Part shown: positions 7,591-11,201 of the stretch, one piece after another | Position numbering within the stretch: position 1 is the first letter of the stretch | How the letters are laid out: each line of letters starts with the position of its first letter | Virus record (IMG/VR): IMGVR_UViG_2703718860_000015 | Source: a virus | Taxonomy: Duplodnaviria > Heunggongvirae > Uroviricota > Caudoviricetes | Length of the DNA stretch: 12,886 bases | Strand: one strand, 5' to 3' | Notes under the pieces: generated by a model | The model's input: the letters and a program-made list of their open reading frames with translations, nothing else | What the model was told of the DNA's origin: nothing | The model's database searches: none | Program-made: the position numbers and the translations under genes

Positions 7591-7775
7591 TGCTGCCCCC
7601 CGAAAATACCAAGTTTAAGAAGGGCAATTCTGGAGAGTATGGAATTATCATTGAGAAGATAAGGCTCATATTTTCTCATCTTAATGGCATCTTCAGTAAA
7701 CTCCCGGTTACTGAGCAGAACACCAATATCAAAACACCCTTCAGACGTATTAACGTTTGGTAATAACGTTTCCAT
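7587..7775 (-). CDS. Hypothetical small phage protein, 62 aa
   Basis: ATG at 7775 with GAGGA 7-8 nt upstream; protein METLLPNVNTSEGCFDIGVLLSNREFTEDAIKMRKYEPYLL.... Coupled to the downstream small ORF. Confidence 0.45.
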   Translation of the reverse strand: METLLPNVNTSEGCFDIGVLLSNREFTEDAIKMRKYEPYLLNDNSILSRIALLKLGIFGGQQ

Positions 7776-8576
7776 TATCGCGTCCTCAACAATGAATTTT
7801 GTGATGTGGTGCCTGGTGCCTCCAGGTGACGTTAACCAGTTAACAATTAACGCCGGAATACAGAATCACCCATAACGCTGTTTTTAGCTTTAACTGTTCC
7901 GCGTGCGCTTAGCCGCATTCACCGCATCACAAAATACACTTTAAAAATGGCGGATATCCATTTCCACCGAATCACCAGAAAAGTGATAACAGAGGTTGTT
8001 GTGGCGGTGTTGTCACTCAGGCGTATGGTCAACCTGACAACCCGGTGCATTTTCTGGAGCAATGGAGGAAGCCCCAGCCATACTTACCGCCGCGCCATTT
8101 CGCGGATTGCCACAACCGGAAGCGCACGATCGAATTACATTTAACGACGACATATACAGAGAGACTAACTTCGCCGAGCGCTTTCGTGTTATGCCCTGAC
8201 TTTTCAGGGATATGTTCTTTCAGTAAACTGTCAGTGCCGGATTCTTATCCGTGTCCGGCGCACGACCACACGTGACAGCGTGTTGGTCTCCATCATTAAC
8301 CCGGAACCTCTATGGAGGATAATATGCAAGTTGATATTATTAGCCCTGTAATGATCCATATGCTTGCGCACATCAGGCTCTTCTGGCACTAATCAACGTC
8401 GGAAAAATTGAAAATTCCGCTATGTGCTTTGAAGAGTTGAAACAACTTGTGCGCTTGTATGAATATATTAAAAAACAATCACAAGATACGGCGTAATATT
8501 TAAAATACTTTCTGTTATATGGGCCTGCTATAATGCTGGCCCATATTTCTAACCCCTCTATAAGAAAAACATATTA

Positions 8577-8990
8577 TTATGGCAATTTCTTCGGTAGCTC
8601 TTCAGAATGCTGAGTTGTTTTAATTATGGTTTTTAAATAATCATCGCTTTCATATTTGAGTGATTCTATGGCAATCCAGATGCGGGCTTTGGTGCCTGCA
8701 TTTGGTTCCAGTTGCTGTAGACGTTTTGCATCTTCCAGTAGTAAGGCGATAACGTGTTTCAGCTTCTCATCATTCGCTTGATTCTTGTTTTCAGGCGAAT
8801 TTTGTCCGCCGAATGGCCACTTTTCTTCGTACAGCCCGATAAAGGTTCGACGCACGTTACCGGATATATTATCGATGGTTTCTTTTTCTACGGTACTCAG
8901 GTCAAGAGTCGCCAGTTGAGAACGAACTATATTCGCTGCCATTTCCTGGAATGGTACTGGTAAATCTTTAAATTCCATCGTCAACCTCAT
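8577..8990 (-). CDS. Hypothetical early-left protein, 137 aa (133 aa if started at ATG 8978)
   Basis: ORF MRLTMEFKDLPVPFQEMAANIVRSQLATLDLS.... ATG 8990 overlaps the stop of the upstream 50-codon ORF (TGATG); the alternative ATG at 8978 has a GAGG 6 nt upstream. Sits where lambda carries N / early-left accessory genes; no homolog recognised. Confidence 0.6.
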   Translation of the reverse strand: MRLTMEFKDLPVPFQEMAANIVRSQLATLDLSTVEKETIDNISGNVRRTFIGLYEEKWPFGGQNSPENKNQANDEKLKHVIALLLEDAKRLQQLEPNAGTKARIWIAIESLKYESDDYLKTIIKTTQHSEELPKKLP

Positions 8991-9142: not shown

Positions 9143-9319
9143 GTTGACCTCATTTACCCTTAACGCCGGGTCGCGGAACTAAAAACCTGCTGCGCTGTTA
9201 TACAAAGTATTCCCGCCGTCATGTTCATACGCCTCGGGCTGGCTACTTAACCCCTGACCACTGCCGGGTAACTCGAAGTATTGCCTGGCGTTCTGTGGGG
9301 CGGGGGGGTTGATGAATGA

Positions 9320-9368
9320 ACAATACCACTACTATTTAATTATGTAAATAGCAGTGCTATTATCGTGG
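9320..9368 (-). promoter_or_regulatory. Candidate OL/PL: leftward promoter with overlapping operator palindrome
   Basis: Minus strand: -35 TTTACA (9348..9343), 17-nt spacer, -10 TATTGT (9325..9320). A perfect 6+1+6 palindrome ATAGCAGTGCTAT (9348-9360) overlaps the -35. The motif TGCTATTA..TCGTG (9356-9368) recurs in the cI/cro intergenic region. Confidence 0.35.
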
Positions 9369-9372
9369 CAAG

Positions 9373-9393
9373 AAAAAAACCACCCGAAGGTGG
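9373..9393 (-). terminator. Rho-independent terminator ending the repressor-antitoxin-toxin operon
   Basis: Minus-strand RNA CCACC-UUCG-GGUGG followed by UUUUUUU (forward aaaaaaa 9373-9379), 17 nt downstream of the toxin stop codon. Confidence 0.75.
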
Positions 9394-9409
9394 TTGTTGA
9401 CAGGAAGGA

Positions 9410-9700
9410 TTAACAGGTTTTGTTTGGATACTGTCTTCGTGAGTGAACTACATTTACGATCTCGATGTTAGATGCTGTTACTCGGTAAAGTATTATGTAG
9501 TTAGGATGAGTCACTATCTCACGAAGACTTGGAACTCTTTCGCTCGGTGGGTACAGATAAGGGTGTTCAGTAAGTGACAAAACTGATGTTTCAATGCGTA
9601 TTTTTAGTCTACGTGCAGCGGGAGGGTTTTCCTTAGCAATATAGGCTACGATCTGACGTAAATCATCACGTGCAGAAGGTAGCCATAAAATGGGCAGCAT
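9410..9700 (-). CDS. parE: ParE-family type II toxin (ParE2-like), 96 aa
   Basis: Protein MLPILWLPSARDDLRQIVAYIAKENPPAARRLKIRIETSVLSLTEHPYLY...YIILYRVTASNIEIVNVVHSRRQ has the ParE/RelE-fold pattern. ATG 9700 overlaps the antitoxin stop (TAATG). Confidence 0.9.
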   Translation of the reverse strand: MLPILWLPSARDDLRQIVAYIAKENPPAARRLKIRIETSVLSLTEHPYLYPPSERVPSLREIVTHPNYIILYRVTASNIEIVNVVHSRRQYPNKTC

Positions 9701-9891
9701 TACTCACTCCTGTTCGTTGCAGCTAATTGAGCAATAAGGTTTTCCATTTCAGCCATTACTTCGTCATGTGGAATTGCAGGACGGGGATCTGAGAGGCTTG
9801 CTGCCACTTTGGCTCGCAACCATTCGTTATAGCTGTTTTCTTGTTCGACTGTTTCAAATTCAGAAATTATCGGGGAAAGGGCTGTACTCAT
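9700..9891 (-). CDS. paaA: PaaA-type antitoxin of ParE (PaaA2-like), 63 aa
   Basis: Small acidic protein MSTALSPIISEFETVEQENSYNEWLRAKVAASLSDPRPAIPHDEV... directly upstream of and coupled to the ParE toxin; GAGGAGG 7 nt before the ATG at 9891. Resembles the PaaA2 antitoxin of E. coli O157 prophages as I recall it. Confidence 0.85.
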   Translation of the reverse strand: MSTALSPIISEFETVEQENSYNEWLRAKVAASLSDPRPAIPHDEVMAEMENLIAQLAATNRSE

Positions 9892-9908
9892 GTTTTGACC
9901 TCCTCAGA

Positions 9909-10409
9909 TTAGGCGCGACGACCCTTTTGCGCGGCTAGCCATCGCGCAACGATTTCTTCAATTGATTCTTTTTTCTCCTTCATTTCCTTAAGCATTTTCT
10001 CTTTATCTTCTTTGGGGAAAGCCCTGAACGTCTGGAGCAAATCCCGCTCCATGGGGTCTATATTAAACGGAAGTTCGTTTTCCGATTGTTCCATATCTGC
10101 AGATATAGTGACAACATTGTCCTCCCCAGATTCTTGGGGATACATCCTTACAATTTGTAACAACTCGGCCATATCTGGTCTGATTGACTCGGGAGGAACT
10201 TGCAGCAACCCTGCGAACTTGATAACAGCCTCAAGATTTAAAGGTGTCTGACCATTTAGATAATGGCTTACAGCTCCCTGTGTCGAAAATCCCAGAATTT
10301 CTGCCGCACGCTCTTGGGTTAACCCTAGTTGATTTTTTTTCGCCGTCCAGATTTCTTTCAGTCTCTGGGCGGCTTGCAGGTCGATCTCTGACAGGGATTT
10401 TCTTTTCAT
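9909..10409 (-). CDS. paaR: cI-like prophage repressor, XRE-family HTH regulator (PaaR2-like), 166 aa, no S24 peptidase domain
   Basis: N-terminal HTH (LTQERAAEILGFSTQGAVSHYLNGQ) and a C-terminal charged helical region (KEDKEKMLKEMKEKKESIEE); no LexA-like Ser/Lys autocleavage domain. Divergent from the cro-like gene, and 17 nt upstream of the antitoxin gene on the same strand. Confidence 0.88.
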   Translation of the reverse strand: MKRKSLSEIDLQAAQRLKEIWTAKKNQLGLTQERAAEILGFSTQGAVSHYLNGQTPLNLEAVIKFAGLLQVPPESIRPDMAELLQIVRMYPQESGEDNVVTISADMEQSENELPFNIDPMERDLLQTFRAFPKEDKEKMLKEMKEKKESIEEIVARWLAAQKGRRA

Positions 10410-10516
10410 ACCTTCAATTCTAATAAGATTATTAATCTCTTTGAAATAGTGATGCTATTTACTTTTAAAAATAACAATGCTATTAATGATCGTGATGACA
10501 TCACATGAGGTGAACA
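10410..10516. promoter_or_regulatory. Divergent promoter/operator region (OR-like) between repressor and cro-like gene
   Basis: AT-rich 107-bp intergenic region with palindromes TAATAAGATTATTA (10421-10434) and GTGATGACATCAC (10492-10504), repeated ATGCTATT motifs (10452-10459, 10477-10484), and a candidate rightward promoter (-35 TTTACT 10458-10463, -10 TATTAA 10481-10486) ahead of the cro-like GAGGTGA ribosome-binding site. Confidence 0.5.
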
Positions 10517-10792
10517 ATGAATCTTGGAGAATATTTGCATCATTCCGGTATAACTCAGAAGCATTTTGCTGAAATTGTTGGGGTAACCCAAGGGATGGTA
10601 AGCCATGTCATTACCGGACGGGCGAAACTTACGGGGGAAAAAATTTTACGCTGGTGCGAAGCAACAGGCTGGATAGTAACTCCGCACGAGATTGATAGCA
10701 GTACTTATCCCAACCCAACCGACGGCTTACCTGTCGAGTATCAGGCTAACACACAACCAGAGGCGGGGGTGATTCATGAAAATCAAGCATGA
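10517..10792 (+). CDS. ydaS: Cro-like HTH regulator (YdaS-like), 91 aa
   Basis: ATG at 10517 with GAGGTGA upstream; HTH signature ITQKHFAEIVGVTQGMVSHVITGR; divergent from the repressor gene. Confidence 0.85.
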   Translation: MNLGEYLHHSGITQKHFAEIVGVTQGMVSHVITGRAKLTGEKILRWCEATGWIVTPHEIDSSTYPNPTDGLPVEYQANTQPEAGVIHENQA

Positions 10793-11201
10793 ACACATCC
10801 GCATGGCAATGAATGCCTGGGCGTATCCAGACGGTGAGAAAGTTCCAGCAGCTGAAATAGCCCGGACTTATTTCGAGCTGGGGATGACGTTCCCGGAACT
10901 GTACGACGACAGCCATCCGGAAGCCCTGGCTCGTAATACCCAGAAAATTTTCCGCTGGGTGGAGAAGGACACGTCTGATGCTGTTGAAAAAATTCAGGCG
11001 CTGTTACCGGCGATCGAAAAGGCGATGCCGCCTTTGCTGGTGGCCCGTATGCGCAGTCACAGTTCTGAATATTACCGGGAGATCGTCGAACGACGGGATC
11101 GGCTGGTGAAAGATGTGGATGATTTTGTCGCTGTAGCGATCGCCTGGGGCACCCTGACTAACAGTGGTGGTCAGCCTGGTAATGCAGTTGTTGTGCATTG
11201 A
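10776..11201 (+). CDS. ydaT: YdaT-like protein (functional CII equivalent in Rac/CP-933P-type prophages), 141 aa
   Basis: Protein begins MKIKHEHIRMAMNAWAYPDGEK, as YdaT-family proteins do; overlaps the 3' end of the cro-like gene by 17 nt; sits in the cII position. Confidence 0.85.
   Translation: MKIKHEHIRMAMNAWAYPDGEKVPAAEIARTYFELGMTFPELYDDSHPEALARNTQKIFRWVEKDTSDAVEKIQALLPAIEKAMPPLLVARMRSHSSEYYREIVERRDRLVKDVDDFVAVAIAWGTLTNSGGQPGNAVVVH

Follow-up and report, generated by a model that had tools for sequence, protein, structure and literature searches.

The stretch of viral DNA analyzed here in full (the window: 12,886 nucleotides [nt], IMG/VR record IMGVR_UViG_2703718860_000015) carries three intact minus-strand open reading frames (ORFs) that encode an immunity repressor, a PaaA-family antitoxin and a ParE-family toxin, and it is this putative prophage operon that concerns us. 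ORF listing and sequence agree on three co-oriented genes with very short junctions, as described in an earlier note made from the sequence alone. Between the repressor stop codon and the antitoxin ATG lie only 17 nt (TAATCTGAGGAGGTCAAAACATG) with GAGGAGG inside, and a scan for promoters and terminators found neither kind of element in this spacer (9892-9908). The antitoxin stop and toxin start codons share one base in TAATG (GAGTAATGCTG), with AGGAG upstream of the toxin start. Fourteen nt past the toxin stop codon, the hairpin AACCACC-TTCG-GGTGGTT is followed by TTTTTTCTT (9395-9370; predicted folding energy -10.4 kcal/mol), a terminator whose limits had previously been given as 9373-9393, correct to within 2-3 nt. 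Its stem is kept in two diverged alleles, L007 and L008 (81% and 92% identical), with a substitution of a loop base. The module thus comprises the following elements:

9909..10409, minus strand: immunity repressor, 166 amino acids (HTH_3, match to lambda cI, Foldseek, alignments)
9892..9908, minus strand: spacer with the antitoxin ribosome-binding site GAGGAGG (sequence, promoter/terminator scan)
9700..9891, minus strand: PaaA-family antitoxin, 63 amino acids (PF21217, NF050103, PDB 3zbe, alignments, substitution ratios)
9410..9700, minus strand: ParE-family toxin, 96 amino acids (PF05016, PDB 5cw7_B, alignments, substitution ratios)
9370..9395, minus strand: intrinsic terminator with a 7-bp G+C-rich stem, TTCG loop and T-run (scan, folding, conservation)

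The protein search against PaaA2 and ParE2 that the earlier note had proposed gave strong matches to both and, together with Pfam, places the two smaller proteins in the families expected of a ParE-type toxin-antitoxin (TA) pair. The toxin matches ParE_toxin (PF05016; 6.6e-18, 65.5 bits, cut-off 23) and aligns end to end with the crystallized O157:H7 ParE2 (5cw7_B; 5e-36, residues 1-92); its score with the RelE/StbE subfamily TIGR02385 falls just below the cut-off (27.6 versus 27.9 bits), and its matches to ParE2 are much stronger. The antitoxin matches PaaA2 in Pfam (PF21217; 1.1e-22, 80.2 bits, cut-off 27), NF050103 (3.8e-27) and the PDB structure of PaaA2 (3zbe; 5e-23), and in these Pfam, NCBIfam and PDB searches it did not match ribbon-helix-helix ParD. 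Neither a helix-turn-helix (HTH) nor a ribbon-helix-helix family match, and no DNA-binding domain, was detected for it with Pfam and NCBIfam.

Compared with the diverged alleles, at synonymous divergence (dS) up to saturation, the ratio of nonsynonymous to synonymous substitution (dN/dS) is 0.03-0.21 for the three genes (0.03-0.17 for the toxin gene and 0.07-0.21 for the antitoxin gene). A chance arrangement is excluded because all three ORFs match their families strongly and show these ratios, and the purifying selection on all three therefore identifies them as functional genes and not debris. Many cryptic lambdoid prophages are defective, and the genes might accordingly be decaying remnants that have lost their function. 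In prophage CP-933P of E. coli O157:H7, ParE2 activity was undetectable at steady state (PMC8630535), which would fit such decay. However, all three ORFs are intact and of full length relative to crystallized homologs, the substitution ratios are low, and the regulatory sites described below are conserved, so that decay seems most improbable to us.

The repressor is a composite protein with a lambda-cI-type N-terminal domain (residues ~2-90), a disordered linker (~90-118) and a helical C-terminal domain (~119-166). It matches HTH_3 in Pfam (9.9e-10), its N-terminal domain matches structures of the lambda cI N-terminal domain (phmmer, 9e-10), and residues 2-90 are 51.7% identical to CI of Stx2-converting phages. 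The AlphaFold model has five helices at 8-89 (predicted local distance difference test score about 85-90) and two helices in the C-terminal 48 residues, and its N-terminal domain resembles lambda cI in Foldseek comparisons (template modeling score 0.88-0.93, root-mean-square deviation [rmsd] 1.1-1.7 Å). The stretch shared with PaaR1 and PaaR2, the regulators of the two O157:H7 systems, is limited to the last ~60 residues, with the invariant pattern LLQ.F.AFP...ARW.AAQK.RRA, and the N-terminal domain gave no alignment with either of them beyond generic HTH. The C-terminal domain is 47% identical to the PaaR1 type and also matches the DicA C-terminus (NF007257 positions 75-130), although its 31 bits compare with a family cut-off of 101. 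No S24 peptidase domain is present (no PF00717 match), and the repressor, like PaaR2, should therefore be insensitive to RecA, with a switch that does not respond to it. The label "cI-like" used in the earlier note consequently holds for the N-terminal domain and the genomic position (phmmer, Foldseek, operators) but not for the autocleavage domain. We rejected the reading of this protein as a truncated CI because it shares homology at the C-terminus with PaaR1, PaaR2 and DicA, and this end is under purifying selection.

Database relatives combine the same N-terminal domain with differing C-terminal parts and thus form a modular family. Relatives of 244-255 amino acids (P0013-P0022) consist of a cI-type N-terminal HTH, a PaaR1-like HTH and the PaaR C-terminal domain, the same N-terminal domain is also found joined to another short helical C-terminal domain, and P0031 has this kind of N-terminal domain plus an S24 domain. 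The repressors of 166 and 133 amino acids look like single-domain derivatives of the long proteins, or the long proteins like their fusion. Two of the long relatives serve as examples:

L009:4001-4768: two-HTH repressor
L012:4001-4735: two-HTH repressor

Candidate operators for the repressor lie on both sides of the three genes. With up to 3 mismatches allowed, the window contains six copies of the 15-bp palindrome AATAGCAnTGCTATT, compared with 0.76 expected, and none of 200 shuffles reached six. Four of the six sites form two pairs with 25-bp spacing, one in the intergenic stretch that separates the repressor from a divergent ydaS-like gene (right operator, OR; 10445-10484) and the other just past the terminator (left operator, OL; 9322-9361). 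They are interlaced with candidates for the lambda-type promoters PR, PL and PRM, the last being the repressor's own promoter:

9322..9336, no strand: predicted OL operator, promoter-proximal, AATACCACTACTATT (2 mismatches to AATAGCAnTGCTATT; overlaps the PL -10)
9347..9361, no strand: predicted OL operator, distal, AATAGCAGTGCTATT, a perfect palindrome (motif scan, conservation; 25 bp from its partner, at the PL -35)
10445..10459, no strand: predicted OR operator in OR2-like position, AATAGTGATGCTATT (motif scan, conservation; adjoins the PRM -35, overlaps the PR -35)
10470..10484, no strand: predicted OR operator in OR1-like position, AATAACAATGCTATT (motif scan, conservation; overlaps the PR -10)
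10417..10445, minus strand: PRM-type promoter TTCAAA-17-TAGAAT (scan, sequence; hexamers invariant in L007 and L008)
10458..10486, plus strand: candidate PR-type promoter TTTACT-17-TATTAA for the ydaS-like gene and ydaT (read from the sequence; invariant in L007 and L008)
9320..9348, minus strand: candidate PL-type promoter TTTACA-17-TATTGT, TG-extended (scan; hexamers invariant in L007 and L008)

In the two diverged alleles, the outer half-sites AATAG/CTATT are retained and the central bases vary; the site at 9322-9336 can be aligned in both, though the L007 copy misses the threshold of our scan of comparison loci (up to 2 mismatches to AATAGCAnTGCTATT). That scan found the motif wherever the repressor of a fetched locus has this N-terminal domain (L007-L014), but neither in the PaaR1-type and PaaR2-type loci nor in L015-16, in which the repressor N-terminal domain is only 50% identical to that of the window. 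This co-variation of motif and domain is the best available evidence that the AATAGCAnTGCTATT sites are the repressor's operators. PR and PL share an identical geometry in which an operator is followed by a -35 hexamer overlapping it by 2 nt and a second operator by a -10 hexamer overlapping it by 4 nt. It is on this geometry and on conservation that the promoter assignments rest, because the total of the promoter scan is at chance level; PR is missing from the scan output because its -10 lacks the final T. The PRM -10 ends 7 nt ahead of the repressor ATG, which lacks a Shine-Dalgarno sequence, and a leaderless repressor mRNA is accordingly predicted. The candidate PL reads leftward into a DUF1391/ydfA-like gene and the dicB operon. 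With operators on both sides of the operon, the TA pair is placed between the repressor gene and OL/PL, i.e., as rexAB is in lambda, which agrees with the rexAB-equivalent position proposed earlier.

Three further elements of the operator region were considered and set aside. A third operator (OR3/OL3) was sought by eye 23-25 bp past the pairs, and the best candidate there (10422-10436, 5 mismatches) is not claimed. The perfect 13-bp palindrome GTGATGACATCAC (10492-10504), located between the PR -10 and the ribosome-binding site of the ydaS-like gene, was weighed as a Cro/YdaS site and likewise dropped, since L007 and L008 do not retain it. An ORF of 66 amino acids that crosses the operator region (10406-10606, minus strand) was treated as spurious.

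The earlier note had matched the module to the PaaR2-PaaA2-ParE2 system of the cryptic prophage CP-933P (Hallez 2010; Jurenas 2021, PMC8630535). For direct alignment we fetched both types of O157:H7 locus, i.e., the PaaR2 type (L004) and the other paralog (L002 and L003). L004 is found in O157:H7 genomes at 99.9%, its toxin matches the PDB ParE2 at each of 92 aligned residues, and its regulator begins with MQKKE, the N-terminal sequence determined for PaaR2 (PMC8630535). Because L002 is the non-ParE2 locus in O157:H7 genomes we equate it with paralog 1, and we infer that L002 and L003 represent paaR1-paaA1-parE1, which has been assigned to CP-933M (PMC8630535). The O157:H7 loci share their synteny with the window, i.e., a co-stranded HTH regulator, PaaA and ParE, divergent YdaS-like and YdaT genes, and DUF1391/dicB downstream. 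The proposed match thus stands for the protein families and the synteny, but the TA pair is nearer to the other paralog (toxin 85% and antitoxin 83% identical, compared with 65% and 63% for ParE2 and PaaA2), and the antitoxin C-terminal third is unrelated to that of PaaA2. The regulator differs as well, with a lambda-cI-type DNA-binding domain and 166 instead of 123 amino acids, and so do the operators, for which CP-933P has 18-bp repeats with the consensus GTTTAGTAA. With a different DNA-binding domain and different operators, the phage should therefore be heteroimmune.

The toxin gene (9410-9700) is 85% identical to its paralog-1 counterpart (L002:4960-5247) at the protein level and only 73% at the DNA level, with saturated synonymous sites. 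For the same allele, dS is ~0.77 for the adjacent antitoxin gene and ~0.72 for ydaT. Because synonymous sites are saturated in the toxin gene and dS is lower in these two genes, the comparison suggests that a recombination event had its breakpoint at the TA junction or that the toxin gene has a separate history.

Taken together, the gene anatomy, the homologies, the predicted operators that co-vary with the repressor domain, the purifying selection and the slot position lead us to consider it highly probable that the three genes are the immunity operon by which a lambdoid E. coli prophage maintains lysogeny, and that they represent a heteroimmune allele of the three-component PaaR-PaaA-ParE TA system. 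In such an operon, a weak PRM-type promoter (10445->10417) would have its start site on the repressor ATG or right beside it and give rise to one leaderless transcript of ~1.05 kb that encodes repressor, PaaA and ParE and ends at the hairpin (9395-9370). PaaA would be translated from its own GAGGAGG site, with ParE translationally coupled via TAATG. The repressor would bind the AATAGCAnTGCTATT pairs at OR and OL through its lambda-cI-type N-terminal domain and oligomerize through the PaaR/DicA-type helical C-terminal domain. In the lysogenic state it would shut PR (ydaS-like gene, ydaT and replication genes) and PL (ydfA-like gene through dicB) and keep PRM running, with autoregulation of PRM being probable. 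The YdaS-like protein would act as Cro and YdaT as CII via a conserved site at 10769-10786, in line with the roles of YdaS and YdaT in the CP-933P system and with the experimental evidence that PaaR2 is a CI analog with a leaderless mRNA (PMC8630535).

PaaA and ParE made from the same transcript would form an inert complex in which PaaA neutralizes ParE by direct binding. If the operon were lost, replaced or silenced, labile PaaA would be degraded and ParE, presumed to be DNA-damaging and SOS-inducing, would kill or arrest the cell, and this release of ParE would make the immunity region addictive. For the PaaA2 system, ClpXP/ClpAP-dependent post-segregational killing and SOS induction by ParE2 have been described (PMC8630535). 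Because PaaA has no DNA-binding domain, expression of the TA pair should depend on the prophage switch. The parts of this account that concern transcription, binding, toxicity and addiction extrapolate from the CP-933P experiments and from sequence.

Classical type II TA pairs are self-contained, and these two genes might likewise form an autonomous module, transcribed from a promoter of their own and only adjacent to the repressor gene instead of sharing one operon with it. A promoter-like TTGTCA-18-AACAAT, TG-extended, indeed lies inside the repressor gene (10114->10085), but promoter-like matches are at chance level and the gap of just 17 nt holds neither promoter nor terminator. PaaA is without a DNA-binding domain both in our searches and in published work (PMC8630535), and the homologous operon is co-transcribed from a promoter upstream of paaR (PMC4803016). 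In addition, of the 72 E. coli genomes that encode this repressor domain, 70 have the whole module, and the diverged alleles L007 and L008, both inspected, each keep the pair. We therefore regard independent transcription of the pair as very unlikely and favor the three-gene immunity operon.

Several observations nevertheless weigh against this operon as we have drawn it. The fold energy of the terminator only modestly beats that of shuffled sequences (z = -1.8), the promoter scan as a whole found 4 sites where 3.3 are expected, the PR -10 (TATTAA) is non-canonical, and only two operators per side were found, with no OR3-like site identified. The promoter-like site inside the repressor gene could yield a separate TA transcript. 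Neither transcriptional state of CP-933P showed toxin activity (PMC8630535). According to work cited in PMC10886550, ParE2 neither binds GyrA59 nor inhibits gyrase, and for this reason we do not assert gyrase poisoning for the toxin.

Among 5,426 complete E. coli genomes, 842 encode a PaaA/ParE homolog of some kind and 595 the PaaR2 type, compared with 70-72 (about 1.3%) for the type with the cI domain. In a collection of 50,697 phage genomes, a DNA search returned no match for the 1.2-kb module, and a protein search found a ParE2-like toxin in one record only, Escherichia phage Evi (L017, LR597642.1: 24332-25192). The Evi locus has a PaaR2-type regulator and antitoxin, and its toxin gene is unannotated in the record.

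What lies between repressor and OL varies among relatives. Of the relatives that share the repressor domain and operators, L009-11 have about 190 nt with only a terminator hairpin in this place, and L012-14 have HipA_2+DUF3037, which match the PADLOC candidate PDC-M66A/B. The more distant L015-16, which are without these operators, carry HigB+HTH (HigB/HigA) downstream of the repressor, matching PD-Lambda-2 A/B. Representative coordinates are as follows:

L009:4769-4981: slot empty except for the terminator hairpin
L012:4787-6360: slot with HipA_2+DUF3037
L015:4612-5339: slot with HigB+HTH

The stretch between repressor and OL therefore looks like an exchangeable cargo slot, and its variable contents support the proposal by Jurenas et al. 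that the TA pair is inserted cargo (PMC8630535). These defense-like neighbors also bear on a different role, in which the pair, expressed from the lysogenic promoter, would chiefly be a phage-exclusion (abortive-infection) module and an analog of RexAB instead of, or besides, an addiction module. The pair fills the position, bounded by the repressor gene and OL/PL, that is empty or holds candidate defense genes in same-immunity relatives and HigB+HTH in the more distant ones. However, this argument is built on guilt by association: PADLOC returned no defense-system match for the repressor, antitoxin or toxin, and published work on the homologs shows addiction and plasmid stabilization and reports no phage phenotype (PMC8630535). 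A mainly exclusionary function is thus rather unlikely in our view. More tentatively still, one may speculate that toxin modules expressed from the lysogenic promoter are exchanged in the PaaR/DicA-type slot and that PaaA-ParE acts in a RexAB-like manner on superinfecting or recombining phages and not only in addiction.

The immunity operon belongs to a longer prophage. Its 1.2-kb module is 100% identical in E. coli FHI_NMBU_10 and 99.7% identical in O104:H4 strains, where it belongs to the left arm of a lambdoid prophage that has inserted next to tRNA-Ser and mtfA. Gene order in this prophage is integrase, exonuclease, DUF1482, dicB, DUF1391/ydfA-like gene, toxin, antitoxin and repressor, with a small HTH gene, ydaT and replication genes divergent from the repressor side. 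The divergent genes in the window are the following:

10517..10792, plus strand: YdaS-like HTH protein (Cro analog), 91 amino acids (HTH_3 3.7e-6; phrog_35 6e-21)
10776..11201, plus strand: YdaT (CII analog), 141 amino acids (PF06254 3.3e-10; phrog_163 CII-like activator 2.4e-45)
10769..10786, no strand: predicted YdaT operator, OM-like inverted repeat GTGATTCATGAAAATCAA in the region of a PRE-type promoter (one mismatch to TTGATTN6AATCAA; spans the ydaT start codon)

The YdaS-like protein is 41% identical to its homolog in the O157 locus and YdaT 79-87% identical to its homologs. The YdaT site, whose consensus TTGATTN6AATCAA has been defined experimentally (PMC9986795), begins 7 nt ahead of the ydaT ATG in each of the E. 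coli loci compared, CP-933P type included, a conservation to which coding constraint may contribute.

On the PL side, the 177 nt of non-coding leader (9143-9319) that separate the PL candidate from the DUF1391/ydfA-like gene show very high conservation, the genes of the alleles being ~81-92% identical, and may hold a regulatory RNA element or antitermination site. A 137-amino-acid ORF in the PL operon (8577-8990, minus strand) has no Pfam or NCBIfam match and is hypothetical in RefSeq, and the gene at this position varies between related prophages. DicF, a small RNA expected upstream of dicB, had no Rfam match anywhere in the window, and isrK and IsrM matched at chance level only. A sub-threshold Rfam match to STnc100 (7743-7950, minus strand; 34.5 bits versus a gathering score of 47, E = 2e-5) overlaps the dicB start and its upstream region. 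Farther along this prophage, ~2.5 kb past the window's right end and flanked by the replication genes on one side and the Q region on the other, lies another RelE/ParE-family toxin, unrelated to the first, together with a ParD antitoxin (L001:18042-18604).

Judged by its sequence, the locus is a third immunity type in the PaaR-PaaA-ParE family, beside the two from O157:H7. What appears new is the allele, with its chimeric regulator and newly defined predicted operators, in a system that has itself already been described, so that the finding is of moderate to low surprise and does not overturn current understanding; its value is mainly at the level of annotation, plus a testable lead. Published work on PaaR2 describes a CI analogy that is functional only, "despite lacking sequence similarity" (PMC8630535), while the regulator studied here is truly homologous in sequence to the DNA-binding domain of lambda CI. 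This natural chimera bears on how a CI-type DNA-binding domain works with a PaaR oligomerization domain in an SOS-independent switch. Same-immunity relatives with an empty or differently filled slot in turn constitute a natural experiment on TA or defense cargo behind a prophage repressor.

Compared with cI-rexA-rexB of lambda, the operon has a repressor whose N-terminal domain is homologous to that of cI (about 35-39% identity, rmsd ~1.5 Å), accessory genes co-oriented between the repressor gene and OL/PL on a predicted shared transcript with a terminator after them, and paired operators at a spacing of 24-25 bp. The lambda cI mRNA is known to be leaderless, as is predicted here for the PRM mRNA. 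Unlike in lambda, the cargo has no RexA/RexB homology (only ParE and PaaA matches in Pfam, NCBIfam, PHROGs and PADLOC), the repressor is without the S24 autocleavage and oligomerization domain, and two operators per side were found. DicA of the Qin prophage resembles the repressor in its C-terminus and likewise has dicB and ydfA-like genes downstream, but the repressor scores far under the DicA family cut-off, and no TA pair is known to lie behind dicA in the K-12 map.

The likeness is greatest with the O157:H7 systems. The paaR2-paaA2-parE2 locus of CP-933P has regulator, PaaA and ParE in the same order and orientation within an immunity region opposite ydaS-ydaT, the YdaT operator at the ydaT start, a PRM geometry that predicts a leaderless mRNA, operators on both sides, and the conserved regulator C-terminal domain without S24. 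Paralog 1 (L002/L003) has the closest TA pair, a YdaT that is 79% identical, the same flanking DUF1391/ydfA, dicB and exonuclease genes and the related regulator C-terminal domain, but the N-terminal domain of its regulator shows no sequence relationship to that of the repressor, and the window contains none of its operators. With canonical ParD-ParE (RK2, Vibrio, Caulobacter), finally, the module shares the fold and family of the toxin, whereas its antitoxin is PaaA instead of the ribbon-helix-helix protein ParD and regulation has passed to a separate regulator.

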